Below are positions 1,760 to 61,301 of a DNA stretch of 64,000 nt, piece after piece. The stretch lies in the IMG/VR virus record IMGVR_UViG_3300045972_000219; one strand, given 5' to 3'. Under the pieces are notes generated by a model. The model made no database searches. It had not been told where the DNA came from and saw only the letters and a program-made list of their open reading frames with translations. This DNA is from a virus. Its lineage: Duplodnaviria; Heunggongvirae; Uroviricota; Caudoviricetes. The translations under genes and the position numbers were made by a program. Numbering within the stretch: position 1 is the stretch's first letter; each line of letters starts with the position of its first letter.

Positions 1760-4216
1760 ATGTCAGTAAAAGTAACAGACTTCTGCGATGTAATGTCTGA
1801 TAGCTTTTTGAAGTATGCATTCAGTGTAGTTATCGGACGTTCAATTCCTGATTTTAGAGATGGCTTAAAGCCAGTACATCGTAGAGTGCTTCAATCATGT
1901 AATGTTGAAGGGATACGTAGTACTTCGCCATGTAAGAAAGCTGCACGACTTGTAGGTGCATGTCTTGGTAGATTTCACCCACATGGAGATGCATCTGTAT
2001 ATGATGCAGCTATTCGTTTAGCTCAACCATGGAAAATGAATGTACCTCTTATGGATTCACAAGGTAATATAGGGTCTATTCATGGAGACAGCTCTGCGGC
2101 GATGAGATATGTGGAGATGCGATCAGCTGCAGTGTGTGAGTATATCTTTAAAGATCTTAAGAAAGAAACTGTACCTTGGTCTCCTACTTATGATTCTTCA
2201 GATGTTGAACCCATGCTGCTCCCTATCCATTTCCCTAATCTCCTGATCAATGGTGCATCAGGTATGGCAGTAGGATATGCAACAGATATTCCTCCTCATA
2301 ATCCGAAGGAGGCTATTGATGCATGTCTACTCTTACTGAAGAAACCTGACGCTACTTTAGATGAAGTAATGAAGGTTATTCCCTCACCAGATTTTCCAAC
2401 AGGAGGACTAATTATTAATCCTTCTGAAATACGTAATGCCTATGCCACTGGTAAAGGTAATCTCCGTGTGAGAGCACCTTATGAAGTGAAAGATCGTAGT
2501 AGAGGTGCATCAAGTATTATTTATAAGACAATCCCATATGGTACATCTACAGATAAGATACGTGAGAAGGTTGCTGAATTAGCAAAGGATAAACGTATTC
2601 AAGTTACTGACTGTAGGGATGAGTCTGATAAGAAAAATTATAGACTCGTTGTAGATGTACCTAATGGTGTATCGCCTGAAACAACTGCAGCATTATTGTA
2701 TCAGCTCACTCCATTGGAATCAACTGTTAAGATTAATCTTAATGGTATTATCAATGATGGAATTAAGCAAGTAGGTATTATTGAAATGCTTAATATCTTT
2801 CTTGAGTTCCGTAGAGGAGTAGTAATTAATCGTACATCATATGAACTCCGTGAGTTTAAATCACGAAAGCATATTGTTGAAGGATTAATCAAGTCATGTA
2901 AAGGTATTGATGAAGTTATCAAGATTGTACGTGCTGCTGAATCAAAGGATGCTGCATCAGTTAAACTTCAAGAGAAGTTTGAATTAACTGAAAGGCAAGC
3001 TGAAGCAGTTCTTGCAATGCGTATCAGTCAGCTGACTAAGCTGAATATCAATCAGTTGAAGGAAGAGAATACCAGTCTTGAGTCTTCAATTAATCAACGT
3101 ATTGATATTTTAAAGACAAAAGAGTATGTAGATGATATCATTTCAGATGAATTGAAAGCTGCATCTAATTCTCTTAAACGTCTTAGACTTACTGAAGTAT
3201 CTTCAGTAGACGTTAAGAAGACTGTTGGTGATGAAGCGTTAGCTGTAACTATTGTTGAAGAAGATGTTGTTATTACAATATCCACACAGGGTTATCTGAA
3301 GCGTATTCCTCAATCAGCATTTACATCACAGGGTCGTGGTGGTAAAGGTCGTAAAGGAATGAAGGCAAGAAAAGATGATATGATTGAGAGGATTCTACAG
3401 TGTTCTTCTCATGATGACTTACTATTATTCACTGATACAGGACGTGTCTTTAGTTCTAAGGCATTCCGTATCCCTGAGTCTACTCCTGATAAAGTAGGTT
3501 CACATGCATCAGCTTTCCTTGCTATGAAAGATGGGGAGAAAGTAGTTGAAGTAATTCCTGTTAAGAAGCTTGGAAAGAAAGATTCAGTCATTATTTGTAC
3601 TGCAAATAATAAGATTAAGAGAACTGCAGCAGAGGAATATACTGATATTCGTCCTTCCGGTGTTATTGCAATTAAGCTAGAAGATAAGGATAAGATTCTT
3701 TCTGCATTTGTCGGAAGGGATGCTGATGAAGTATTTGTAGGTACTAGTGAAGGTAAGAGTTTACGATTTCCTGTAGCAAATATTAATCCAACTAATCGTA
3801 CTACGATGGGCGTAATGGCAATTAATGTAGCTAAAGGTGAAAAGATTGTAAACTGTACAATAGTACCTAAAAAGACTACATGTCAAGTCATAGCAATATC
3901 CAATGAAGGCAATGGTAAGAAAATGGATATTGAAGATTTCCCAACTGCTTCTCGTGGTTGTAAGGGTGTTCTCGCTATGTCCCGTAGACCAAATACTAAG
4001 ATGGTTTATCTCGGTACTGCTTCCGATGAAGATAAAGGTTTAATTATCACAACATCAGAAGGAATTTGTATCAGAATTCGCCTTGAAGATGTTGCATCTT
4101 TAAAACGTGTGACTAAAGGTAGTCGTCTCATTAGACTTACTGAAGGTGACTCTATTATGTCAGTTACTACAACAACTGACGAAATAGAGACAGATGTTGA
4201 GGAAGGTGAAGAATGA
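1760..4216 (+). CDS. gyrA: DNA gyrase subunit A (type IIA topoisomerase A subunit), full length with C-terminal beta-pinwheel domain
   Basis: N-terminal region GRSIPDFRDGLKPVHRRVL...HPHGDASVYDA is the canonical GyrA/ParC breakage-reunion domain with the catalytic Tyr region. QGRGGKGRKG matches the GyrA-box (QRRGGKG) that distinguishes GyrA from ParC. RBS AAAAGGAGTAATTATG. Confidence 0.88.
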   Translation: MSVKVTDFCDVMSDSFLKYAFSVVIGRSIPDFRDGLKPVHRRVLQSCNVEGIRSTSPCKKAARLVGACLGRFHPHGDASVYDAAIRLAQPWKMNVPLMDSQGNIGSIHGDSSAAMRYVEMRSAAVCEYIFKDLKKETVPWSPTYDSSDVEPMLLPIHFPNLLINGASGMAVGYATDIPPHNPKEAIDACLLLLKKPDATLDEVMKVIPSPDFPTGGLIINPSEIRNAYATGKGNLRVRAPYEVKDRSRGASSIIYKTIPYGTSTDKIREKVAELAKDKRIQVTDCRDESDKKNYRLVVDVPNGVSPETTAALLYQLTPLESTVKINLNGIINDGIKQVGIIEMLNIFLEFRRGVVINRTSYELREFKSRKHIVEGLIKSCKGIDEVIKIVRAAESKDAASVKLQEKFELTERQAEAVLAMRISQLTKLNINQLKEENTSLESSINQRIDILKTKEYVDDIISDELKAASNSLKRLRLTEVSSVDVKKTVGDEALAVTIVEEDVVITISTQGYLKRIPQSAFTSQGRGGKGRKGMKARKDDMIERILQCSSHDDLLLFTDTGRVFSSKAFRIPESTPDKVGSHASAFLAMKDGEKVVEVIPVKKLGKKDSVIICTANNKIKRTAAEEYTDIRPSGVIAIKLEDKDKILSAFVGRDADEVFVGTSEGKSLRFPVANINPTNRTTMGVMAINVAKGEKIVNCTIVPKKTTCQVIAISNEGNGKKMDIEDFPTASRGCKGVLAMSRRPNTKMVYLGTASDEDKGLIITTSEGICIRIRLEDVASLKRVTKGSRLIRLTEGDSIMSVTTTTDEIETDVEEGEE

Positions 4217-4594: not shown

Positions 4595-4795
4595 ATGTTA
4601 AAGAAGATGTGGTTTATTGCATTTTGGTTAATCTTTAATATATCTGGATTATCAGGTATATTTATGGGGCTTAATTCACCTAGTACTATTAATGTTTTAA
4701 TGTCAGTTATCGCTATACTAACATTAGTTACAATTAATACACTAATCTATCGTGCAGTCAAAAACAAAAAGGAGAAATTGAATGAGAATGTTTAA
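4595..4795 (+). CDS. small membrane protein (66 aa, 2 TM)
   Basis: RBS AAAAGGAGTTATTAATG; two hydrophobic helices. Confidence 0.5.
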   Translation: MLKKMWFIAFWLIFNISGLSGIFMGLNSPSTINVLMSVIAILTLVTINTLIYRAVKNKKEKLNENV

Positions 4796-5636
4796 ATTTG
4801 TCGTGTTGGTCGTGGTATTGGGGATGCTTACTGGATGTATGACAACTATTGAACCTGGTCATACTGGTATTAAAATCAACAAAGTAGGAGATAACCGTGG
4901 TGTCTCGAAAGAGAATCTTGTATCTGGATGGGTATTTTACTTCCCAATTACTACTAAAATTGTCGAATATCCTACATTCAATCAGCGTGTTGCCTGGACT
5001 GCCAATAAGAATGAAGGAAGCCCTACAAATGAAGAGCTTAGCTTTCAAACAAAAGACAACGTCCCTGTTACGATGGACGTTGCGGTAAACTATACCTTAC
5101 TTGAAGCCAAAGTACCTGAGTTCTATACTAAATTCCGTGCCGATAAGATCAGTTATTTTACTCATGGATTCCTTCGAGATCAGGCACGTAATGCAGTAAC
5201 TCAAATAGGTAGTGAATACTTGTTTGATGAGGTTAATGGGAGTAAGAAAGAAGAATTTCTTACTAAAGTTAATCAGTATCTAGCTAAATCAGTCACAGAA
5301 TTTGGTGTGGTTATTGCAGCTAATGGAGTGTCACTTATAGGTGCAATGCGACCACCTGAGAATCTTCGTAATGCAATCAATGCGAGGGTTCAAGCTATTC
5401 AAGAATCAATGAAAGCAGAAAATGAACTACGTACGTATAAGGCTAATGCTGCAAAGGCAGTAGCTCAAGCTGAAGGTGAAGCTGCATCTATGAGAGCTAA
5501 ATCAGCTTCAATTACACCTCAGTTTATGGAATTGAAGAAGCTTGAAATTGAAGAAGAGCGTATTAAGAAGTGGAATGGAGTTCTACCAGTTACTATGCTT
5601 GGTGGGAATTCTTCTACTTTATTACAGCTTAAGTAA
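4782..5636 (+). CDS. SPFH/band-7 (prohibitin/HflC-like) domain lipoprotein
   Basis: Signal peptide with lipobox LTGC. Central region (NVPVTMDVAVNYTL...ARNAVTQIGSEY...) plus an Ala/Glu-rich coiled coil is typical of SPFH proteins. RBS AAGGAGAAATTGAATG. Confidence 0.7.
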   Translation: MRMFKFVVLVVVLGMLTGCMTTIEPGHTGIKINKVGDNRGVSKENLVSGWVFYFPITTKIVEYPTFNQRVAWTANKNEGSPTNEELSFQTKDNVPVTMDVAVNYTLLEAKVPEFYTKFRADKISYFTHGFLRDQARNAVTQIGSEYLFDEVNGSKKEEFLTKVNQYLAKSVTEFGVVIAANGVSLIGAMRPPENLRNAINARVQAIQESMKAENELRTYKANAAKAVAQAEGEAASMRAKSASITPQFMELKKLEIEEERIKKWNGVLPVTMLGGNSSTLLQLK

Positions 5637-7571: not shown

Positions 7572-7757
7572 ATGCAAGTAACTGTACGATGTCCACTTTG
7601 TGGAAAAGATACTTTATTCAATATAAGTACAGCAAGAGTAATGTCCACCCCAGTATTAACTATCGATGATCAAGCTCCATTTGACTTTACTGAGACTGAT
7701 TGTCCTCATTGTAAAAAAGAACTTAGTGTACAATTAACAGTTGAATTATTTGAATAA
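7572..7757 (+). CDS. zinc-ribbon protein (61 aa)
   Basis: CPLCG ... CPHCK. RBS AAGGAGAATATAATG. Confidence 0.5.
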   Translation: MQVTVRCPLCGKDTLFNISTARVMSTPVLTIDDQAPFDFTETDCPHCKKELSVQLTVELFE

Positions 7758-7769
7758 AAGGAGAATATA

Positions 7770-7976
7770 ATGGCTAAAGGTGAGATTAAAGATTATACTC
7801 ACAGACCAAATGTTCAAAAGTTCCTTCCTTGGTGGAGGGAATTCATCCAAAAGAATAATATTCCTAAAGGATCAGGTTTAGAAAAAGCTTTAGTTATTCT
7901 TAAAAAGGGTAAGACAAAATTCCTTGATAGAAAGGATAGAGTTGGTCTTATGCAAGCTCTATCAGATGAAGCTTGA
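7770..7976 (+). CDS. hypothetical protein (68 aa)
   Basis: RBS AAAGGAGAATATAATG. Confidence 0.5.
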   Translation: MAKGEIKDYTHRPNVQKFLPWWREFIQKNNIPKGSGLEKALVILKKGKTKFLDRKDRVGLMQALSDEA

Positions 7977-8302
7977 TGAGAAGTATATTACGGTGTCCTA
8001 AACATCAGATATCTTTTAAAGGAAATGAGTGCTGTCCGAAGTGTTACCCTGATGCAAATAATCATCCTAAAATAAATATAGAGAGGATACATATTATGAA
8101 ATGTCCACATTGCGGATTTAATGATGGTAGAGGAGAAAAGAGTTATTATAAGATAAAAGCTAAGGGAACTAGAGTAGTTAATATACCTCCTGAAACTCAG
8201 TCTGTAGATATTTTTGGATGCCCAAGTTGTCTTAAACTATTTATAAAAGTAGATGGACAAGGAGAGGCTATATGCCAGTCAATGCAACAGGAACAAGCGT
8301 AG
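7973..8302 (+). CDS. multi-zinc-ribbon protein (109 aa)
   Basis: CPKH..CCPKC, CPHCG, CPSC motifs. Confidence 0.5.
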   Translation: MMRSILRCPKHQISFKGNECCPKCYPDANNHPKINIERIHIMKCPHCGFNDGRGEKSYYKIKAKGTRVVNIPPETQSVDIFGCPSCLKLFIKVDGQGEAICQSMQQEQA

Positions 8303-9237
8303 TATTTTCTAGCGGTAATGTTAATAATGGTTATTGGATCCAATCATCCGAGTACACATCTTCATCTGGAACTGGCGTGAATATTATTAGCCATCCTATG
8401 ACTAGTGTAAGCTTTAATCAGAGTGATGACGATGATGAATCAGGTCTTAAACCAACAAAGGGTATTCACCCTAAATTGATATTTAAGTATACTAAGTCTA
8501 GACTTACAAAGCCTGATTTAGATACACTTAAACAGAATTTATCTAAGCTCCGACCTATGATTGTATCAGCTGATATAATGGGTCAACGTGTTTTGTTCGA
8601 AGAGTTATCACAGCAGTTAGCAGTGTGTGTAAAAGAACAAGAAGCTCTAGCTATTGGATGCGGTCATCGCCTTCCAAGAGAACTTGCAAAGAAATATACT
8701 GATAAATGTCGAGATAAGGTTATTCGCTTCGAACCTCTTGAAAAATTCCCTAGAATGATTCCTGAGAGAGTAAGAAATAAGATAATTGAAATCAAAGCAA
8801 CAGATGTATTTGATGAATATTGGGTGTTATTTATTGATGAGTCTAAACAAAAGCTTCAGTCTAATAAGGATAAGATCAAAGAAAAAGATCCTATCTTATT
8901 TGGATGCTTTAAGTTCAATCCTGAGACATTATATTATATCACAGATTGGATTGATGAGTACTGTGATTTAACAATGTCTAAATTAGTAGGTGAAATCAAA
9001 ATTGACGATCCTGAATTTGCATTAGATAGAGTTCCTGATGTAGATCAGAAGTACGTTGATGAGATTGTTGCTGCAGTTAGGGAAAGAGCAAGAAGACTTG
9101 AAATGACTAAAGCTTCTAACTATAAAGAACTTATGGTCGAAGAAGACCGAGTTAAGAAAGAGAAAGAAGTAGCTGAAAACACTATAGGTAAACGTGTCAG
9201 AGATGCATTTGGTCGTTTTATGAAAAGGGGTAAATAA
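8272..9237 (+). CDS. hypothetical protein (321 aa)
   Basis: ORF track; no recognisable motif. Confidence 0.55.
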   Translation: MPVNATGTSVVFSSGNVNNGYWIQSSEYTSSSGTGVNIISHPMTSVSFNQSDDDDESGLKPTKGIHPKLIFKYTKSRLTKPDLDTLKQNLSKLRPMIVSADIMGQRVLFEELSQQLAVCVKEQEALAIGCGHRLPRELAKKYTDKCRDKVIRFEPLEKFPRMIPERVRNKIIEIKATDVFDEYWVLFIDESKQKLQSNKDKIKEKDPILFGCFKFNPETLYYITDWIDEYCDLTMSKLVGEIKIDDPEFALDRVPDVDQKYVDEIVAAVRERARRLEMTKASNYKELMVEEDRVKKEKEVAENTIGKRVRDAFGRFMKRGK

Positions 9238-12562: not shown

Positions 12563-13132
12563 ATGAAAAATATTGTACTTAAAAACTACTATAATGAATT
12601 AATGTTTTGTATAGCATCATTCATTACACTCATTGTAATCATAATAGAATTAAATGTATCTAGTGATTATCATTTATCATCACTATATCTCATACCAATA
12701 TGTATAGTTAGTATGTACTGTCATCCTAATCAAATATACGGAATACTTTTCTTTTGTATAGTTGGATGGACAATAACTAATTTTATTGATGATGAGTATC
12801 ATATTTCTCACATAGTAATCAATAATCTAATACGTGCAATGATATATGGCGGTGTATCATTTGTAGTGTATATGTTTAAAATTACTCTTATAAATGAGAG
12901 AATTGCACTAAATAAACTTCAAGATATCAATGATGAAATAAAGACTCTAGAGGGTTTACTTCCTATTTGTGCATGGTGTCATAAGATTAAGAATGATGAT
13001 GGTTACTGGACTAAATTAGAAGAATATGTTACTGTTCATTCAAGTGCTCATTTTACACATGGTATTTGCACTGATTGCAATACTAAGGTGTTAAATGAGT
13101 TAGAAGTTAGATATAACGAAATAGTACCTTGA
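12563..13132 (+). CDS. polytopic membrane protein with C-terminal Cys/His zinc-binding domain
   Basis: 4-5 TM helices, then LLPICAWCHKIKNDDGYW...HSSAHFTHGICTDC. I recall this motif type from C-terminal extensions of bacterial sensory proteins. Confidence 0.5.
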   Translation: MKNIVLKNYYNELMFCIASFITLIVIIIELNVSSDYHLSSLYLIPICIVSMYCHPNQIYGILFFCIVGWTITNFIDDEYHISHIVINNLIRAMIYGGVSFVVYMFKITLINERIALNKLQDINDEIKTLEGLLPICAWCHKIKNDDGYWTKLEEYVTVHSSAHFTHGICTDCNTKVLNELEVRYNEIVP

Positions 13133-14680: not shown

Positions 14681-15039
14681 GATGTGCTTTTTGTGGAAGA
14701 GAAGGGGCTACCGATTGTGGTAGCCTCACCTTTCAGTGTGAAGGAGAGTGTGATGAGACAACACTCTGTATAGATGAGAAAATGATTAGATGTAGAGAAC
14801 AAGCATATAAAGAAATTATTAGATCTAATCCTTTAGTCTATAATACTTTAAGAGCTGGTGGAACTGATGTAGATGTAATAATTAGTCTTGTAAAAGAGAA
14901 TGAAGATTACAAGAATAGACTTCTTAAAAATTATACAGAAAATCCATGTAGAACCATCATATTCAAAGGAGATTTAAATGCAAGAGCCATTGATACAATT
15001 GAAGGAAATAATTTGGGAGATAACGACAAATTGCAATAA
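14677..15039 (+). CDS. Cys-rich protein (120 aa)
   Basis: N-terminal CAFCG..CGS..CEGEC..C cluster. 3' end overlaps the next gene by about 60 nt. Confidence 0.45.
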   Translation: MRCAFCGREGATDCGSLTFQCEGECDETTLCIDEKMIRCREQAYKEIIRSNPLVYNTLRAGGTDVDVIISLVKENEDYKNRLLKNYTENPCRTIIFKGDLNARAIDTIEGNNLGDNDKLQ

Positions 15040-16033
15040 TGGGTGTAATTATTGCGGTAGTAAAGATATCCTAAACAATGATGCACCTAATAGAATTCAG
15101 ACTATCTGTGATGAGATAGCTGAATATGTTGCAACTGTTGAAGGAACTGTCTCTATCGACATCTCAGGTGGAGATCCGTTATCTTGTTTCTATGCCGATC
15201 ATCAGTATATAATAGATGTAATGCCAGAGAATGTTCGTCTTAAGATACTCGTTAATCCTTTATCATTTTCTAAAGTTGAGATGAGTTCATGGATCAACAT
15301 CCTTAAGATGTACTATTGGGTTGGGATTAGTGTCAATACTATTGAAGAACTTAATGCTCTTAAATACTATTGGCATATGTTTAAGGCTAATGAAGTCAAT
15401 GTAACGATTATCTCTAATTTCTCCCGAGACAATATCTGGCATTATGATGATATTGAATCATTTGTTATTGGCGATCATCCAATTGATGAAGATCAATTAA
15501 CTTGGCAAATTCAATACACAATGGGTGATAACTCCACTGCAATCTATACTAATTCAGATGCACTTAGTATGTTCTTTAACAAGATTACAAACTCTTTTAA
15601 TAATGGTCGTAAATTAGTAATTGCAGATAATATGAATGAAGGAGAATGTTCTGCAGGTAAATATTCTTTAGGTATCCTTCAAAATGGAGATGTAGTTGCA
15701 TGTCTTTCCATGAGAAGTTGGGGTACTCCTGAATCTATGGGTAATATATTAGATACTAAACTATCTACTATATGGGAAAATAACTTTGGGTACTTTAGGA
15801 CACAATCATTTAAGTGCTGTAAAGACGTTTGTAATGCACCCTACTGTGCTGAAACTAAATCAAGATCTATGATGGATATGCTCACTAATCCTAGAGTTCC
15901 AAATCCTAAACCAAAACCATTCACACCACTTCCTGGAATGACTTGTGTATATGGAGTAACCACTAATCCATTATATCCAGGTAATGTATTTGTGTATGGT
16001 GTTGCAACAGACGGTCCAATTCTAAATAAATAG
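14978..16033 (+). CDS. radical SAM enzyme with SPASM/twitch-like C-terminal Cys cluster
   Basis: CNNGCNYCG is a Cx3Cx2C motif. SGGDPL glycine-rich SAM motif. C-terminal region has at least 7 Cys (CSAG...ACLSM...CC..C..C). RBS AAAGGAGATTTAAATG. Confidence 0.7.
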   Translation: MQEPLIQLKEIIWEITTNCNNGCNYCGSKDILNNDAPNRIQTICDEIAEYVATVEGTVSIDISGGDPLSCFYADHQYIIDVMPENVRLKILVNPLSFSKVEMSSWINILKMYYWVGISVNTIEELNALKYYWHMFKANEVNVTIISNFSRDNIWHYDDIESFVIGDHPIDEDQLTWQIQYTMGDNSTAIYTNSDALSMFFNKITNSFNNGRKLVIADNMNEGECSAGKYSLGILQNGDVVACLSMRSWGTPESMGNILDTKLSTIWENNFGYFRTQSFKCCKDVCNAPYCAETKSRSMMDMLTNPRVPNPKPKPFTPLPGMTCVYGVTTNPLYPGNVFVYGVATDGPILNK

Positions 16034-21152: not shown

Positions 21153-21570
21153 GGGGGTGAACTAGTTTCGACGGGGGACTAATAGTTATAAACACGCTCA
21201 GAGGTTTCTCGTTGGCCTCTTTAAACTACGAGAACACAATTAATTGCCAACGCTATTAATGCAGTACGTAACTTCTTTGCAGCAGACAACTATGCCTTTG
21301 CAGGTGTAGCAGCTGCTTAAGAAGTAAAAATTCCTACAGCTTAATCGTAGGTGGGGTAGAGAGTAGAGAGCGACCTTGTAACTCTTCACCCATCAACAGA
21401 AGAAACAATTAGGAAGAAATTAGTTTGACTGATACTAATCAACAACAGTCTAGAGTCCAATCCGATTTGCCTTTTTGGGATACAGCTCGAAACACTAAAC
21501 AGGCTATGAGCGTACATGTTGTAATGAAAGGTTTTTCGGACCCGAGTGGCAGTACTCGGCACCTCCACCA
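21153..21570 (+). ncRNA. ssrA: tmRNA (SsrA-like transfer-messenger RNA), phage-encoded
   Basis: The 5' end GGGGGTGAACTAGTTTCGACGGGGG matches the tmRNA 5' consensus (E. coli GGGGCUGAUUCUGGAUUCGACGGG). The 3' end CACCTCC-A-CCA pairs with the 5' 7-mer and includes a G3:U70 wobble, the Ala identity element. TTTCGGAC precedes the T-arm as in E. coli. Internal tag ORF 21279-21320 GCAGCAGACAACTATGCCTTTGCAGGTGTAGCAGCTGCTTAA encodes AADNYAFAGVAAA-stop. The T-loop is non-canonical (CCGAG-TGGCAGTA-CTCGG). Confidence 0.7.
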
Positions 21571-25029: not shown

Positions 25030-26183
25030 TCAATAAAAAATTATTAACATAAAATTACATAACTCAGATTGACCCATGAGTACGGTTTTCTTTCGGGAAG
25101 ACAGTGCAATAATGGGGTGTCATGGGGGGGCAGGTTTCATGTCCTCGTTGGAGGTAAACCAACGGAAGAATAACTCTAGTAATAGAGATAAAAGATTTCT
25201 ATGATCCATAAGTAGAGTCTGGTGAGAAATATGCTATCCATTGTGAATGCACTCACTTCAATTGAAAACCATTAATACACAATATTCTTGGGCGGAGGAA
25301 ACCCTAAAGGCTTCCAAAGAGAATATTACTTGGTATGAAGGTCGCATACTGAGTTGAGTCGAAAGACAATAGAATGTATTAATGCTTGTAATGTGCAATG
25401 GACTAGTCATCCGGAGTGCGTACATGAGTTATCGGTTATCCCTATTGCGTTTGCCAAAGCGCACCTAGATTGGCATCTAGGTCAAGAAATTGGTGGGAAA
25501 TGACTAAATACAGTAAGTATCCTTGACAGGAGAAAACAGAAGGGTGACGCATCTAAACTACTCAAAAGGTAGCATGATGACAACGTCAACCTCATCCTTC
25601 ATCAAACGACTAATGGATAAATTCTATTATAATCATTGGATCTGAAATCCAAACTATATGAGATGATATCTATAAAAGCAAAAGTGTTGACGGCATTTGA
25701 ACTAAAATGAACTTATTCCTCTGTAATATGGGGATATCTGAAAGTACCGCAAGGAAATCAGATAAGAAGAAACGAGTAACATTGACCTAACAGGTGGGAA
25801 CCTGTGAACTCTGCCAAGAGAGGATGTGTGAAAGAAGTAATCTATACAGTCAGATGCAGAAGAGTTGCAAGACTCTAAAACTTGTGTTCATGGATGCTAC
25901 TATCTTGAAAGGGATAGTGTGTAAAGAGTTTCGAAAGAAATTTTAACGTATCCATTACGGGTCAATTTACTCAGCCCAACAATTAATAATCGCCTTATTC
26001 CCCTCCATAGGAATAAGGCGATTTATTAAATCTCCTTTCCACCGTAGATTAATGGGAGATGAGCACTCATGTAGAGCATGCTACCTTTATGGTCACAATG
26101 CATGTACTAAGTCTGGCAATCTCGATGTGATCCCGACTCTCGCTCACAAGTGGATGGACATCCACTATAAATAACGTCTAAAT
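25030..26183 (+). ncRNA. candidate large structured ncRNA (about 1150 nt ORF-free, GC-elevated) ending at a terminator
   Basis: No ORF in any frame. GC is markedly above the genome average. Ends with an intrinsic terminator at 26184-26230. Confidence 0.3.
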
Positions 26184-26230
26184 TAACCCTTATTCCTTAA
26201 TTGGAAAAAGGGTTAATTTTTTTTTTTTAC
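26184..26230 (+). terminator. rho-independent terminator (TTAACCCTTATTCC-TTAATT-GGAAAAAGGGTTAA plus T11)
   Basis: Hairpin with the same CC-TTAATT-GG loop as the terminators at 16354 and 26975, followed by 11 T. Confidence 0.75.
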
Positions 26231-26308: not shown

Positions 26309-26971
26309 ATGAAAACGACAGTATGGATGATCATTCTAATTATTATGATTGGACTGATGGGATGTAAGACTGAGGACAAGTTTTCAGGAAAGTACGGTTC
26401 TAGTGATGTCGCACTAACGATTGAGAAGAATGAGAATGTTAAAGATGAATACAAATTCACATTTTCAGGCAGTCCGATGTTTGGTGAGTTTGATGTACTT
26501 GTCAATGTGAAAACAGATGGAACTGCACATTACGTTATGAAAGATCATTACATAATTGACAGTGGAAAAGAGACTAAGAATAAATGTGAACTTGATATCA
26601 AGTTCTTCAATGACACAGTAACAATAAAAGAAGAGCCATGCGGTATATACACAGTTGATGGTGTATATAAAAAAGAAAACGTCCAATCATCAAATGCTCA
26701 GACAGCGAATACAGTTAAACCAGTAGCTAAAACAGAAGCTCCAAAGAGCACTGAAGTTGAACAGAAGATCATATTTCAAACCAACAGTATACAGTATGAT
26801 AAATCTGTATACAATCCAGCAGTAGAGTGTAACAGAGAGTGTAACAAAGTATCCGAAAAAGTAGTAGATTATACATCACAAGGATGGAAAGTAGTTTCTT
26901 CAGTACCACGTACGCAAGCAGTTGCTACATGGTGTAAATGTGACGGAGTTGAGTATATAGTATCGAAATGA
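26309..26971 (+). CDS. secreted lipoprotein (220 aa)
   Basis: Signal peptide with lipobox LMGC. RBS AAAAAGGAGAAACAAATG. Last gene of the plus-strand arm. Confidence 0.55.
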   Translation: MKTTVWMIILIIMIGLMGCKTEDKFSGKYGSSDVALTIEKNENVKDEYKFTFSGSPMFGEFDVLVNVKTDGTAHYVMKDHYIIDSGKETKNKCELDIKFFNDTVTIKEEPCGIYTVDGVYKKENVQSSNAQTANTVKPVAKTEAPKSTEVEQKIIFQTNSIQYDKSVYNPAVECNRECNKVSEKVVDYTSQGWKVVSSVPRTQAVATWCKCDGVEYIVSK

Positions 26972-26974
26972 AAA

Positions 26975-27017
26975 TAACCCTCATTCCTTAATTGGAATGA
27001 GGGTTATTTTTTTTTTA
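26975..27017. terminator. bidirectional intrinsic terminator at the convergence of the plus and minus arms
   Basis: ATAACCCTCATTCC-TTAATT-GGAATGAGGGTTAT is a 14-bp stem flanked by AAAA on the left and T9 on the right. The stop codon of minus-strand ORF 27015..27266 lies in the T-run. Confidence 0.7.
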
Positions 27018-27266
27018 GATTTTAGTATGACATCCCTTACACATTGTTGGACCAGATGTTTTAGCATGACATCCTTTACACTCTTTATGAGCATAATTCT
27101 TTCCAATACCATCAATTTTACCAACTCTTAGTATATGGCATGCGTTACATTTATTAGCTGTTGCGTGTGTTGTATGATTAAAACTAACATCTTTACCCAA
27201 CTTAATAATCTCTGATGCATATACTGATTGGCTAACGAGTACAATCATTAAAATTAAAATCTTCAT
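27015..27266 (-). CDS. triheme cytochrome c7-family protein (PpcA-like periplasmic c-type cytochrome)
   Basis: Signal peptide MKILILMIVLVSQSVYASE. Three CxxCH haem-binding motifs (CNACH, CKGCH, CKGCH) in a mature domain of about 66 aa. From memory, the motif spacing aligns with Geobacter PpcA (V.F.H..H...C..CH...GKI.G.GK..AH..CKGCH....GPT.C..CH.K). Confidence 0.7.
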   Translation of the reverse strand: MKILILMIVLVSQSVYASEIIKLGKDVSFNHTTHATANKCNACHILRVGKIDGIGKNYAHKECKGCHAKTSGPTMCKGCHTKI

Positions 27267-27436
27267 TGATATTCCTTCTATACCACAGGTGGGTATTTTT
27301 GTAATAGTGATTTATCTATGTGTATCTTACAAATAAAATGACGCTTACCAAAGGCAAACATTCTAACTAGGTCTTCTCTGGGTTTCATTTCATTACATTG
27401 GATGCATTTGAAGTGAGTCAATTTAGGCATAACAAA

Positions 27437-28138
27437 TTACCCCTTGATGTATCTAATAAAGCCTACTACTTGAAACGTCTTACCTATATCCAGTTTTCTA
27501 GTCCTTCGATAAACTCCGTCTCCTTCTCTTTGACTTCCTTTAGCTCCTGGACCTGTGTTACCTTCTATGTCGTCAAATTCATTTTTAGCTATTTGCCTTT
27601 CAATAGTTCCACCATGTCCAGCAAAATTACCAGTAGCTTCCCCATGTGCCCAAATAGCTATATCTCCTAAGGCTAAGTTTTCTATACCAAGAAATACTCT
27701 ATTGGCAGGAATAACTTTATATGCAAATGGATTCTTTTGGCAGGCTTTATATAATAGACTAGCTCTAGCTAACTTAGGAAATACATCTGGTTGCTTTGTT
27801 TTCTCTGCAGCTATATGATAATTATAGAGAGCAAAAGCCACACAGTACGGATTTCCTTTAGGAAGTCCTACATATCTAAGAAATGTTTCTACTTCTGGTC
27901 CATCGTTATTACCTGTTTTTTCTTGTGTTCCGATATATTTTCTAGCATTTCCAACTGCTATTTCTTGAAGAGTAGTAACTCTTTTAGGTTCTTCTTTTTT
28001 AACTATAGCAGTTGGTATATGACAGTCAATACATTTAGCTATTGACAGTGATGGAAATAGAGCAAGCGAGAATAAACATACCAAGATATACTGCAGCGGC
28101 AATATTCCCTTCAACAAAGATCTCTCTAAGAACGTCAT
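27437..28138 (-). CDS. secreted CHAP/NlpC-P60-like cysteine peptidase (putative cell-wall hydrolase or endolysin) with N-terminal CxxCH motif
   Basis: N-terminal hydrophobic signal or anchor, then KCIDCH (CxxCH). Catalytic-type Cys in GNPYCVAFALYNYH and His in AIWAHGEATGNFAGHGGTIE at CHAP-like spacing. Confidence 0.5.
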   Translation of the reverse strand: MTFLERSLLKGILPLQYILVCLFSLALFPSLSIAKCIDCHIPTAIVKKEEPKRVTTLQEIAVGNARKYIGTQEKTGNNDGPEVETFLRYVGLPKGNPYCVAFALYNYHIAAEKTKQPDVFPKLARASLLYKACQKNPFAYKVIPANRVFLGIENLALGDIAIWAHGEATGNFAGHGGTIERQIAKNEFDDIEGNTGPGAKGSQREGDGVYRRTRKLDIGKTFQVVGFIRYIKG

Positions 28139-28430
28139 ATTTAGTACCCCTAGTGAATTTAATTATAGCAAATGAGGCAATAACTAAAAGTGTTAAATTA
28201 ATAAATTTAGTTGTAACAATTTGAAGATTACTACCAGACAATACTTGAGCAAAATAACCTAACACTCCAGCTATAATAATTGTAATAATAACTAAATATT
28301 TCTCATCAAATCCAATACGTTTTAACTTACTCATCTTTTTCTCTGGCTCTGGTGTAGTTTCAAATCCTACTGTTTTTTCTTCACTCATCTTTTTCTCCTT
28401 ATTTAAGTGGGATAATAACCTTATCGACAT
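28035..28430 (-). CDS. membrane protein (131 aa, 3 TM), possible holin-like partner of the downstream peptidase
   Basis: Three hydrophobic helices. Located immediately upstream of the peptidase gene in the transcription direction. Confidence 0.45.
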   Translation of the reverse strand: MSIRLLSHLNKEKKMSEEKTVGFETTPEPEKKMSKLKRIGFDEKYLVIITIIIAGVLGYFAQVLSGSNLQIVTTKFINLTLLVIASFAIIKFTRGTKYDVLREIFVEGNIAAAVYLGMFILACSISITVNS

Positions 28431-29730
28431 CGATTTTAGTTACTTTAATAGTCATGTCATGACGTTTCTTTAGGTTAGCATTGAGTAATGATGCAGATAG
28501 TCTTGAACAAAGTAGACCTACATTATCGATTCCCATTCTATAGTACAATTCACCTGCACATTTACTACAAATATGCTCTGTTGTACAATATAGGGGTGAT
28601 CGTAACATAACTGTTTTATCTACGTATTTGGGTAGATTCTCAGCATCTAGCAATACTAGTTTATTCTTATCTACTACATATCGTAGATAATAGTCTTTTT
28701 TGTTCTTGTCTGTGATTTTAGCAGTGTAACCTTTTTTAGTCTTACAATCTGTGCCAGGTTTATCAAGAACAACAGACTGGAAGGAAGCATTCATCTTCTT
28801 TGTTTCATAACCACCTATCTGAGTACCTACAGCAGATGAGAATGAGGCAGTAGTAATCATATCAGCATAGATATCAGTCTCATCTTTTTGAATACCTTCA
28901 GTTAAGTTACTTGTAGATAACTGAAGATTGTTTTCATCATCAGATTTTTGAGACATACCACGCATAATAGCTACGTTCTTATAGGTATTTTCGTATGATC
29001 CACCCTTATAACCAGAGTCATATAGATCAAGACCACCAGCATCAGTCCTATCTAGTTCAGTTCTAGCTAAATCAAGAAGTTCTTTTTCGATCTTCTGAAC
29101 TGTAGATGCATCTAGTTTACCTACATATTTCTTTAATAGTTCTTCTTTTCTTTTCTTTACAGCTGGAAAAGAGAGAATACTATTATAGTCATATGAACCT
29201 GAAGTGAATGCAACAGTGCCATAACTAATCCAAGCTATACGATCTAAATGATTAATAAATTCTTCAGATGTTATCTTTTCCTCTAATAGGAGAACTGATA
29301 AATCACTATTTAATTTACCTAGAGTACTACTATTGAATGGAGAATTATAGTACGGCATTTTAGATCTAATATTTTCACTTCCACCTAATACAAATAGATT
29401 TATTATATATCTACCAACAGTAGTTAATACTTCACCATTAAATCCTAAAGCCCATGCAGGAGTTAGATTAGGTTTAGGATTACCTGATTTAGTTACTACT
29501 TCTTTACTAAAAGAAAACTCAGCATGAGATTCTATACGTGGTGGTTCATCTTTTTTATTAGCTACATTTGTCTTAAGCCAGTCCATAGTAATGTCATCTG
29601 GCTGAAGGCTTAGAAGTTCGTTTACGAGGGTTGGACTTAATTTGCTTCTCTTTAACATCACTACTCCTTTCTTGAAAGACAAATAGAAATGCAAGACCAG
29701 CCACAGATAGAAAGTGGGTAGCAAATCCAA
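28399..29730 (-). CDS. hypothetical protein (about 420-443 aa) with C-terminal Cys cluster
   Basis: Track ORF begins with a non-ATG start. The likelier start is the internal ATG near 29657 (MLKRSKLS...). The C-terminus has CTTEHICSKCAG...C. Confidence 0.55.
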   Translation of the reverse strand: MDLLPTFYLWLVLHFYLSFKKGVVMLKRSKLSPTLVNELLSLQPDDITMDWLKTNVANKKDEPPRIESHAEFSFSKEVVTKSGNPKPNLTPAWALGFNGEVLTTVGRYIINLFVLGGSENIRSKMPYYNSPFNSSTLGKLNSDLSVLLLEEKITSEEFINHLDRIAWISYGTVAFTSGSYDYNSILSFPAVKKRKEELLKKYVGKLDASTVQKIEKELLDLARTELDRTDAGGLDLYDSGYKGGSYENTYKNVAIMRGMSQKSDDENNLQLSTSNLTEGIQKDETDIYADMITTASFSSAVGTQIGGYETKKMNASFQSVVLDKPGTDCKTKKGYTAKITDKNKKDYYLRYVVDKNKLVLLDAENLPKYVDKTVMLRSPLYCTTEHICSKCAGELYYRMGIDNVGLLCSRLSASLLNANLKKRHDMTIKVTKIDVDKVIIPLK

Positions 29731-60610: not shown

Positions 60611-60891
60611 AGTCTATACCTCGTCTCATATCTTCTATCAAGATATTTAGGTCTGTATTTAGGACGTTTATTTTTAGTTATTCTTTTTCTTATAGTAGTT
60701 AAAGTAGTTGTTTCATAAACTGGAGGTGGCCATTCACGAGGTGCCTCTCTAAAAGTGTTAGGACTAGGTTTAAATATACATTGAATTAATTCTCCAGCTA
60801 ATCCAATTAGACCAATAAGTATTAAAAATGTGAAGAACATAACTAGCGCATCTTGAGCTTCCATTATTTTATTTCCTTTCCATAGTGACAT
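60607..60891 (-). CDS. membrane protein (94 aa)
   Basis: 1-2 TM helices; basic C-terminus. Confidence 0.45.
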   Translation of the reverse strand: MSLWKGNKIMEAQDALVMFFTFLILIGLIGLAGELIQCIFKPSPNTFREAPREWPPPVYETTTLTTIRKRITKNKRPKYRPKYLDRRYETRYRL

Positions 60892-61301
60892 TCATTACAA
60901 GATGTATCCCATCCAATTATTTGACCATCAAAGTACTCATTATATAGAATACCATTTTGATCAACTCCTACCTTTGTTAGATGAAAATTAATACTTCTAC
61001 CATCATAATATTTATCATTTATTACTAATAGCTTATTCTTGTATACAACCATGCTACCACGTCTAGAACTTTTAAGAATATCCTTAACGTTATTAAACTC
61101 GTTAATATCAATTGCACGCTGAATTATAGGGTCTATTTTATTATAATTTCCTTTTGTAATAAACCATGTAGATATAGTAATTGTAGATATCAATATTATT
61201 ATAAACATAATTAATTTGAATACCATACTATCCATTAAGTAACTAACTATGGAAAATCTTCCTCCACTCCACATACCTTTACCATAATATGAATCATTCA
61301 T
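60864..61301 (-). CDS. membrane-anchored protein (145 aa)
   Basis: N-terminal TM helices. Confidence 0.5.
   Translation of the reverse strand: MNDSYYGKGMWSGGRFSIVSYLMDSMVFKLIMFIIILISTITISTWFITKGNYNKIDPIIQRAIDINEFNNVKDILKSSRRGSMVVYKNKLLVINDKYYDGRSINFHLTKVGVDQNGILYNEYFDGQIIGWDTSCNECHYGKEIK

Follow-up and report, generated by a model that had tools for sequence, protein, structure and literature searches.

An uncultivated large phage carries a gene for a triheme cytochrome c7 close to the gene for its endolysin. The gene lies in a 64,000-nucleotide stretch of Caudoviricetes DNA (IMG/VR virus record IMGVR_UViG_3300045972_000219; this whole stretch is referred to below as the window), where the minus-strand open reading frame (ORF) at 27015..27266 encodes a small protein that sequence comparison and structure prediction confirmed as an exported triheme cytochrome c7, with predicted haem attachment and a predicted redox role. 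Upstream of it on the same strand, the ORF at 27437..28138 encodes a putative endolysin of the CHAP family. We think it probable that the c7 is a genuine, functional, phage-owned cytochrome that would act as an auxiliary periplasmic electron carrier and keep respiration and the proton-motive force up until lysis. Also new here are the recurrence of c7 in uncultivated phages of low guanine-plus-cytosine (GC) content and a fixed pairing of c7 with a GH108 endolysin in one group of them.

An original prediction, made by reading this DNA without database searches, had described a signal peptide and three CxxCH motifs in about 66 mature residues at 27015..27266 and had likened the product to the triheme c7 PpcA of Geobacter. 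Both statements held. The precursor begins with a Sec-type N-terminus (MKILILMIVLVSQSVYA; hydrophobic stretch, residues 1-15), and its mature part is predicted to start with SEII. The Ala at position -1 of the predicted cleavage site is nearly invariant in the family, and the mature N-terminus lines up with that of PpcA. All three CxxCH motifs lie in the 66-residue mature part, at the same alignment columns as in PpcA and 49 relatives; a single ORF in the real window has at least three such motifs, compared with none in 50 shuffles of the window. A phmmer search of PDB chains gave full-length matches to PpcE (3h34; E=1.8e-13), PpcD (3h4n; 3.3e-11), PpcA (1os6; 3.8e-10), PpcB (3bxu) and the c7 of Desulfuromonas acetoxidans (4.6e-9). 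The NCBIfam profile NF043011 (CytC7_Geobact) aligned over residues 5-80 of 83 at E=1.4e-19, with 70.3 bits against an equivalog cut-off of 120. The two Pfam cytochrome profiles that the original prediction had named behaved differently: PF02085 (Cytochrom_CIII) scored 23.3 bits, just over its gathering threshold of 22.9, whereas PF14522 (Cytochrome_C7) aligned from end to end at 15.7 bits, under its threshold of 24.8.

Residue conservation and fold pointed to the same family. F29, H31, H34, C40, C43, H44, H60, C63, C66, H67, C76, C79 and H80 are invariant between the phage protein and 11 relatives, and the haem columns from H31 to H80 (all 12 Cys and His) stay invariant across 50 sequences, F29 nearly so. 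H31, H34 and H60 correspond to His17, His20 and His47 of PpcA, and the GPT turn is intact. The AlphaFold2 (AF2) model, with a predicted local distance difference test score (pLDDT) of 84, adopts the c7 fold: in Foldseek it matched PpcB (3bxu) with a template-modelling score (TM-score) of 0.74 and a root-mean-square deviation of 2.3 Å, and PpcE (3h34) with 0.76 and 2.1 Å. The mature protein is basic, with an isoelectric point (pI) of 9.3 compared with 9.2 for PpcA. Within the gene, a 23-nt direct repeat (27020..27042 and 27059..27081, 91% identical) corresponds to two CKGCH-(T/A)-K motifs, and may stem from internal duplication or from gene conversion between the haem III and haem IV codons.

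The gene sits in a phage genome and has the composition of one. The longest record with the c7 protein runs to 171,491 bases, and the phage is a jumbo phage of about 171 kb and 33% GC that is distantly related to AR9 and PBS1. A virion protein of 833 residues shares 26% identity with proteins of PBS1, AR9 and phiR1-37. A fragment of the RNA polymerase (RNAP) beta subunit has homologues in Bacillus phage Goe21, in Listeria phage LPJP1 and in jumbo phages of Staphylococcus; its closest relative, P0292, is 70% identical. A metagenome scan with RNAP beta returned distant relatives only, and a 20-kb part of the window, compared with GenBank phages by megablast, had no match. On one side of c7 lie the RNAP beta and virion genes, and on the other lie transfer RNA (tRNA), transfer-messenger RNA (tmRNA) and replication genes. 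The c7 gene has 31.7% GC overall and 19% GC at third codon positions (GC3), in line with the GC3 of about 20% in the RNAP and virion genes. Over the c7 region, 100% identity was seen among four contigs, each from a different sequencing run. Identical independent contigs and phage-like codon composition exclude an assembly chimera, host contamination or a recent capture as the source of c7, and therefore indicate, at the level of sequence, that it is a long-resident phage gene.

Its nearest cellular relatives are c7s of Geobacterales/Desulfuromonadales, at 41-51% identity. Searched exhaustively with HMMER, 1.84 billion representative proteins yielded 239 relatives, of which the best were 46-49% identical to the phage protein and the named ones were all c7s of Oryzomonas, Geobacter or Geotalea; a word-indexed protein search gave no match beyond c7 itself. 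Cellular genomes covering 185,579 species, each represented by a single genome, contained 334 relatives. Of these 334 we inspected the best 80, which are 39-51% identical to the phage protein. Nearly all of them bore the label Geobacterales, Desulfuromonadales or unresolved Deltaproteobacteria; two carried other labels (Dongiaceae and Pedobacter), and their contigs are probably mis-binned. The mature core of the phage c7 is up to 60% identical to that of a metagenome-assembled genome of Desulfuromonadaceae, and a weakly resolved neighbour-joining tree placed it at the base of the PpcA-type clade. Because the phage encodes a c7, its host would have to run a cytochrome c maturation system. We infer that the host is plausibly a two-membrane (Gram-negative) anaerobe with such a system and abundant c-type cytochromes, most likely a member of the Desulfuromonadota. 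Separately, a bacterial-looking contig of 31% GC (L102) carries a c7-like gene (P0030; 622..918) beside uvrA. Cytochromes of the c7 type are thus found in low-GC bacteria too, and such bacteria could host low-GC phages that carry c7.

The original prediction had also held that c-type cytochromes are very rare in phages. For deposited genomes this was borne out: tblastn at E<=1 detected c7 in 0 of 50,697 GenBank phage genomes, and Foldseek found none among the BFVD viral structures. For metagenomic phages the statement failed, as at least 10 further types of phage-like contig, with 26-41% GC, carry c7/c3-like genes (L010/L011, L012, L092, L094, L095, L099, L100, L101, L230/L231 and L237). These genes came from contigs of low-GC-looking relatives and from hand-written degenerate DNA patterns run on IMG/VR. 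Searches of IMG/VR with peptide patterns for c7, the A3 alignment, RNAP beta and the A5 alignment found no relatives, and a looser pattern (FNHxxH...CxxCH) yielded nothing further, its matches being dominated by a non-coding frame that recurs.

One group of large phages stood out by the company that c7 keeps. In all members seen (L010, L011, L092, L093, L099, the 88.8-kb IMG/VR contig L101, L230 and L231), c7 lies 9-200 nt upstream of the gene for a GH108 + PG_binding_3 endolysin. The pair is kept throughout the group, with c7s that are 39-52% identical to each other and endolysins that are 64-66% identical. On L010 and L011 the order is monohaem cytochrome c, c7 and endolysin, with Phage_30_3, HNH and SAM-lyase genes nearby. 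On L010 (ENA REYS20-1 scaffold_644; 7674..8869; 31% GC) the monohaem cytochrome is a 105-residue protein with a signal peptide, a CKICH motif and weak similarity to Cytochrome_CBB3, the c7 has 90 residues, and the contig further encodes sugar-modification enzymes. Two tandem c7 genes lie directly upstream of the GH108 endolysin on L230 (IMG/VR 3300025997_000004, 163.7 kb) and L231; those of L230 (2418..2977) encode c7-like proteins of 99 and 87 residues, overlap by 4 nt and follow a ThyX-like gene. Among the remaining contigs, c7 is found 1.2 kb downstream of an Amidase_2 gene (L094), behind a RecA/UvsX-like gene (L012) and among small ORFs close to DnaB, PhoH and RNase H genes (L095), while L100 and L237 carry tetrahaem variants. 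Two phage lineages unrelated to each other thus have c7 adjacent to an endolysin gene, and their endolysins are unrelated as well: in the window a CHAP gene lies upstream of c7, and in the other lineage a GH108 gene lies downstream of it. The c7 family and phage electron carriers are already known; in the literature searched, whose coverage was incomplete, we found no report of a phage c7, of a c7 as a phage gene beside an endolysin, or of a cytochrome paired with an endolysin.

Sequence and model also supported the reading of the neighbouring ORF, which had been described as a CHAP-like peptidase, as a CHAP endolysin. Two PHROG endolysin families matched it (2.6e-10 and 4.7e-9), and many of its 380 homologues carry PF05257. 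Searched against Pfam directly, it gave no match at E<=0.1, PF05257 included; CHAP membership was assigned through the PF05257 domains of the homologues and through PHROG. C99, H175, E192 and N194 are invariant in 32 endolysin sequences, C99 and H175 being the presumptive catalytic pair. The AF2 model (pLDDT 88) found its best PDB folds in PlyPy and the CHAP domains of LysK and LysGH15, with a Foldseek probability of 1.00 for PlyPy and the LysK CHAP domain and modest TM-scores of 0.39-0.57. The protein consists of an N-terminal signal or anchor helix ending in PSLSIA, a flexible linker of about 25 residues and the cysteine-peptidase domain. Three close homologues (P0172, P0173 and P0175) come from unrelated phage or prophage contigs of 46-50% GC that have no c7.

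The linker holds a CxxCH motif of its own, CIDCH (residues 36-40), directly after the hydrophobic helix that Kyte-Doolittle analysis places at residues 7-38 and one residue beyond the predicted cleavage site. The original prediction had KCIDCH open the mature endolysin and offered a haem-bearing enzyme; the motif is there, in an exported segment, and cleavage after SIA is a prediction only. We lean slightly towards the view that CIDCH is not a haem site at all but a chance motif, or a CxxC thiol-disulfide pair that might, for example, cage Cys99, in an otherwise ordinary secreted or tethered CHAP enzyme. This endolysin alone has an insert of about 22 residues (KCIDCHIPTAIVKKEEPKRVTT) with CxxCH directly beyond the helix: its close homologues mostly run from a plain signal peptide straight into the CHAP domain, and the motif occurs in 0 of the 119 other endolysin homologues retrieved. 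Compared with known haem sites, the N-terminus gave non-significant similarity only, to NrfH (E=0.011) and to FPNLTKADCLECHV of 7lq5 (deposited as 'Cytochrome c'; E=0.6). Five other ORFs of the window have a single CxxCH of the HNH or zinc-finger type, and the background is about 6 per 64 kb; since a lone CxxCH is this common, the endolysin motif is far weaker evidence than the c7 triple. CHAP enzymes need a free cysteine, which would make thiol chemistry in the linker a natural regulator, and in signal-arrest-release (SAR) endolysins such as P1 Lyz a disulfide cages the catalytic cysteine.

Several observations speak for haem nonetheless. The motif lies in an exported, unstructured segment, a low-confidence coil between helix and domain in the AF2 model (pLDDT 58-71), and at the background rate of the window a linker of 25 residues has a probability below 1% of containing a CxxCH by chance. 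The phage also encodes a c7, which would require a host with cytochrome c maturation, and even a minimal CxxCH peptide, once exported, receives haem from System I; haem on CIDCH in vivo, functional or not, is plausible on these grounds. We put covalent haem on CIDCH in vivo at somewhat short of an even chance, and a functional role for such a haem lower again. Elsewhere in the window, a minus-strand ORF of 145 residues (60864..61301) has a transmembrane segment at residues 16-51 and a CNECH motif 8 residues from its C-terminus, and matched nothing in Pfam or NCBIfam; judged from its sequence, it would be a second candidate haem-c site if the C-terminus is periplasmic.

How might the phage use its cytochrome? 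The c7 gene would be transcribed late, at the end of a minus-strand string that closes with a terminator hairpin. The precursor would be exported by the Sec pathway and lose its signal peptide after VYA, and the cytochrome c maturation system of the host would add three bis-His haems covalently. The resulting basic protein of about 9 kDa could then, like the PpcA family, take electrons from quinol oxidoreductases of the inner membrane and store them, as an electron sink, or relay them to outer-membrane conduits. For the phage, the gain would be that electrons keep moving through the periplasm late in infection, sustaining proton-motive force and ATP supply at a stage when phage RNA polymerases would be in charge and the host may stop renewing its own carriers. 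A sustained proton-motive force would in addition delay or avert premature triggering of the holin, which would explain why c7 is co-expressed with lysis genes.

Not everything fits an auxiliary electron carrier easily. The phage protein falls under the cut-offs of PF14522 and NF043011, making it a diverged c7 and not a PpcA equivalog, and its haem attachment and redox activity rest on in silico prediction. The phage has 33% GC, compared with 46-66% for all cellular c7 loci retrieved; jumbo phages of the AR9/phiKZ type are typically far lower in GC than their hosts. A distant relative of the phage, L096, whose RNAP beta is 41% identical, has the virion-virion-RNAP order as well, with no membrane protein, CHAP or c7 gene downstream, and the module of these three genes is therefore accessory. 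Finally, c7 sits in a lysis cluster here and is fixed beside an endolysin in the other group, which fits a role in lysis at least equally well.

In that alternative, c7 would belong to the lysis machinery, either setting or reporting the signal by which the holin is timed, be it the redox state of the periplasm or the proton-motive force, or reducing and thereby activating the exported endolysin. In the window, c7 lies within 171 nt of the gene for a cysteine peptidase that possibly bears haem at CIDCH, placed exactly where a maturation system would meet a CxxCH. Every member of the GH108 group seen pairs c7 with an endolysin despite the divergence of c7, L094 has its Amidase_2 gene upstream of c7, and the presence of three unrelated endolysin families near c7 is hard to explain by one transferred module. 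Against this, the GH108 endolysins have no catalytic cysteine, signal peptide or CxxCH, and redox activation of the enzyme is therefore not a general explanation; the c7 genes of L012 and L095 have no endolysin beside them; the ends of late operons and lysis regions are hot spots for accessory genes; and no lysis system that uses a cytochrome is known. We regard a lysis role as the chief alternative, but an unlikely one. Its most elaborate form, a hitherto undescribed kind of redox-controlled lysis in which a tethered CHAP endolysin with haem at CIDCH exchanges electrons with c7 and the respiratory state of a metal-respiring host gates the release or activity of the endolysin and so the moment of lysis, strikes us as quite improbable.

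We give very little credence to c7 as a passenger, that is, a gene taken from the host that does nothing for the phage and may be decaying. Its position at the end of an operon beside a strand switch, and the absence of the module from L096, would suit such a gene. However, the protein retains every haem-binding residue, the conserved Phe and the GPT turn, and c7 is kept in many divergent phages. Its GC3, moreover, is fully ameliorated, and this implies that the gene has long resided in the phage with its reading frame open. A zinc-binding mini-protein with coincidental CxxCH motifs and no c7/c3 profile similarity, which the original prediction had named as the outcome that would overturn it, is ruled out by the Sec signal, E-values of 1e-13 to 1e-19, distal His residues in register, the c7 fold and the shuffles, with the commonness of small Cys/His-rich ORFs in this phage the sole point counted in its favor.

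If c7 is an auxiliary electron carrier, the consequences reach beyond this phage. Bacteria of the Geobacter type, which drive the reduction of iron, manganese and uranium and generate current in bioelectrochemical systems, rely on cytochromes c7 as their main carriers of electrons in the periplasm. A phage c7 would widen the range of auxiliary electron carriers from, mainly, photosynthesis and nitrogen cycling to extracellular respiration, and would mean that viruses tune metal-reducing metabolism during infection. To our knowledge, almost no lytic phages of electroactive bacteria are known, and the c7 gene marks uncultivated large phages whose hosts are probably electroactive. The pairing of c7 with endolysins and the possibly haem-tagged endolysin are the parts that could prove to be new biology, in the form of a link between respiration and the timing of lysis.

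The features of the locus are collected in the table. On the minus strand the genes run in the order RNAP subunit, membrane protein with three transmembrane segments, CHAP endolysin, a possible 50-codon ORF, c7 and terminator.

Table. Features of the c7-endolysin locus, in coordinates of the window.
Feature	Position	Strand	Basis or remarks
Cytochrome c7 precursor gene	27015..27266	minus	83 aa; mature 66 aa; pI ~9.3
Sec signal peptide of c7 (MKILILMIVLVSQSVYA), predicted cut after VYA	27216..27266	minus	read from sequence
c7 haem motif 1, CNACH (haem I)	27135..27149	minus	sequence and family alignment
c7 haem motif 2, CKGCH (haem III)	27066..27080	minus	sequence and family alignment
c7 haem motif 3, CKGCH (haem IV)	27027..27041	minus	sequence and family alignment
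c7 distal haem ligands (predicted)	His31 27174..27176; His34 27165..27167; His60 27087..27089	minus	alignment
Possible 50-codon ORF between endolysin and c7	27278..27430	minus	ORF list; CxxC...C..H pattern; gene status uncertain
CHAP-family endolysin (putative), 233 aa	27437..28138	minus	PHROG, homologues, fold
Endolysin catalytic residues (predicted)	Cys99 27842..27844; His175 27614..27616	minus	invariant in homologue alignment
CIDCH in endolysin linker, candidate haem-c site	28019..28033	minus	read from sequence
Small membrane protein, three transmembrane segments, holin candidate	28035..28388 (..28430 from first start codon)	minus	DUF350-like similarity
AR9/phiKZ-type multisubunit RNA polymerase beta fragment	28399..29661	minus	phrog_2962, 3.5e-68; heads minus-strand gene string
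Lipoprotein gene, 220 aa, lipobox LMGC, convergent with c7	26309..26971	plus	ORF list, repeat search
Bidirectional terminator hairpin, 18 bp, T/A runs on both sides	26970..27011	both	terminator scan, repeat search
Second copy of terminator hairpin	26180..26225		repeat search; 89% identical to copy at 26971..27016, 46 nt each

The terminator hairpin begins 4 nt beyond the c7 stop codon and also ends the convergent lipoprotein gene. The 50-codon ORF is packed tightly between its neighbours and has a Shine-Dalgarno-like AAGGGGT motif 8 nt upstream; a GC3 of 33% sets it apart from the other genes of this phage, its family matches were all sub-threshold, and it is absent from the output of the gene callers. 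The lipoprotein gene is bracketed by the two hairpin copies and resembles a self-contained cassette inserted at the strand switch, and the GC skew changes sign near 26-27 kb, at this same point. The sole family match of the lipoprotein was to HtaA, sub-threshold at E=0.003; we dropped a haem-binding reading, as PDB and NCBIfam gave it no backing and no PDB relative was found.

The membrane protein noted upstream of the endolysin in the original prediction was recovered as an ORF with transmembrane segments at residues 25-53, 55-80 and 90-117 (Kyte-Doolittle) and an AAGGAG ribosome-binding site ahead of Met15. Pfam DUF350 matched it at E=7e-4, with 20 bits against a threshold of 26. It overlaps the endolysin gene by 104 nt (28035..28138). 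In one frame this segment encodes the last transmembrane helix of the membrane protein, and in another the helix that serves the endolysin as signal or anchor. In P0204, an endolysin homologue of 277 residues, a DUF350 domain accompanies the CHAP domain, and the overlap might be the remnant of a fusion or a frameshift site. A proposed likeness of the last helix to the DUF350 part of P0204 was dropped when BLASTP found nothing.

Further from c7, the window holds other features of a large phage. The predicted tmRNA was confirmed at 21153..21570 (plus strand) by Rfam RF00023, over the full model at 104 bits (E ~1e-40); ARAGORN made no call. Its tag frame is ambiguous owing to an insertion of about 50 nt, with ANAINAVRNFFAADNYAFAGVAAA and AADNYAFAGVAAA as candidate tags, of which the latter is the one first proposed. 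In the ORF-poor region at 24.3-26.3 kb, positions 25539..25977 (plus strand) matched the Rfam GOLLD model over 1-416 of 416 at E=2e-20, with 80.6 bits against a gathering threshold of 150, and terminator-like hairpins follow at 25988..26023 and 26180..26225. Going by this match, the jumbo phage may encode here a large non-coding RNA that resembles GOLLD but has diverged from it. Plus-strand genes encode a full-length, bacterial-type GyrA (1760..4216; 442 bits to DNA_topoisoIV, plus the gyrase C-terminal propeller), which might carry a host-lineage signal, an SPFH/Band-7 lipoprotein (4782..5636) and a radical-SAM/SPASM protein (14978..16033). The window additionally encodes a UvrD/RecD-like helicase and 3 tRNAs. 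The ORF at 12563..13132 (plus strand), once read as having a sensor-type CxxC domain, does encode 189 residues with an N-terminal transmembrane segment and a C-terminal LPICAWCHKIKNDDGYW, but the domain reading found no counterpart in Pfam or NCBIfam.

Set against known systems, the phage c7 is closest to PpcA-PpcE of Geobacter sulfurreducens (1os6, 3bxu, 3h33, 3h4n and 3h34), which likewise have a Sec signal, three CxxCH motifs, three distal His residues, the Phe, the GPT turn and a basic pI. Foldseek alignments of the phage model to solved c7 structures gave 41-44% identity and TM-scores of 0.65-0.76. The phage protein differs in its shorter mature form (66 residues, compared with 70-75 in PpcA-PpcE), in having fewer charged residues (11 K+R and 4 D+E, as opposed to 17 and 10 in the PpcA-PpcE type) and in a haem I-III loop that is 1-2 residues shorter (ILRVGK in place of EKGPGK); it also comes from a jumbo phage of 33% GC, whereas PpcA-PpcE are encoded on a bacterial chromosome of 50-60% GC. 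The c7 of D. acetoxidans (c551.5; 1hh5, 1ehj and 1kwj) belongs to the same family (E=4.6e-9). In a weak neighbour-joining tree it clusters with the c7s of the GH108-associated phages, whereas the c7 of the window is nearer to the Geobacter PpcA type, with which it has the GKI(D/E)G(I/F)GK loop in common.

The endolysin shares the Cys-His pair and CHAP fold of LysK CHAPK (4csh), LysGH15 (4olk) and PlyPy (5udn), and an N-terminal export helix with the signal-peptide and SAR endolysins of Gram-negative phages; unlike known CHAP endolysins, it has the CxxCH insert and its gene overlaps the upstream membrane gene by 104 nt. Its N-terminus has the layout of those of membrane-anchored cytochromes of the NapC, NirT and NrfH type, with one transmembrane helix and, only a few residues beyond it, C-(I/L)-x-C-H-(V/I), but the similarity is non-significant, the motif is single and the remainder of the protein is a peptidase.

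Among phage auxiliary electron carriers, plastocyanin and ferredoxin are encoded by cyanophages. A 2026 preprint (bioRxiv 10.64898/2026.06.18.733297) reports a multihaem cytochrome c of the NapC/NirT family in amoC-phages. Like the phage c7, all of these are small, host-like redox proteins of large lytic phages with a presumed part in the upkeep of electron transport. The phage c7 differs from them in its family, a c7 of extracellular or metal respiration, and in its site inside or at the end of a lysis cluster.

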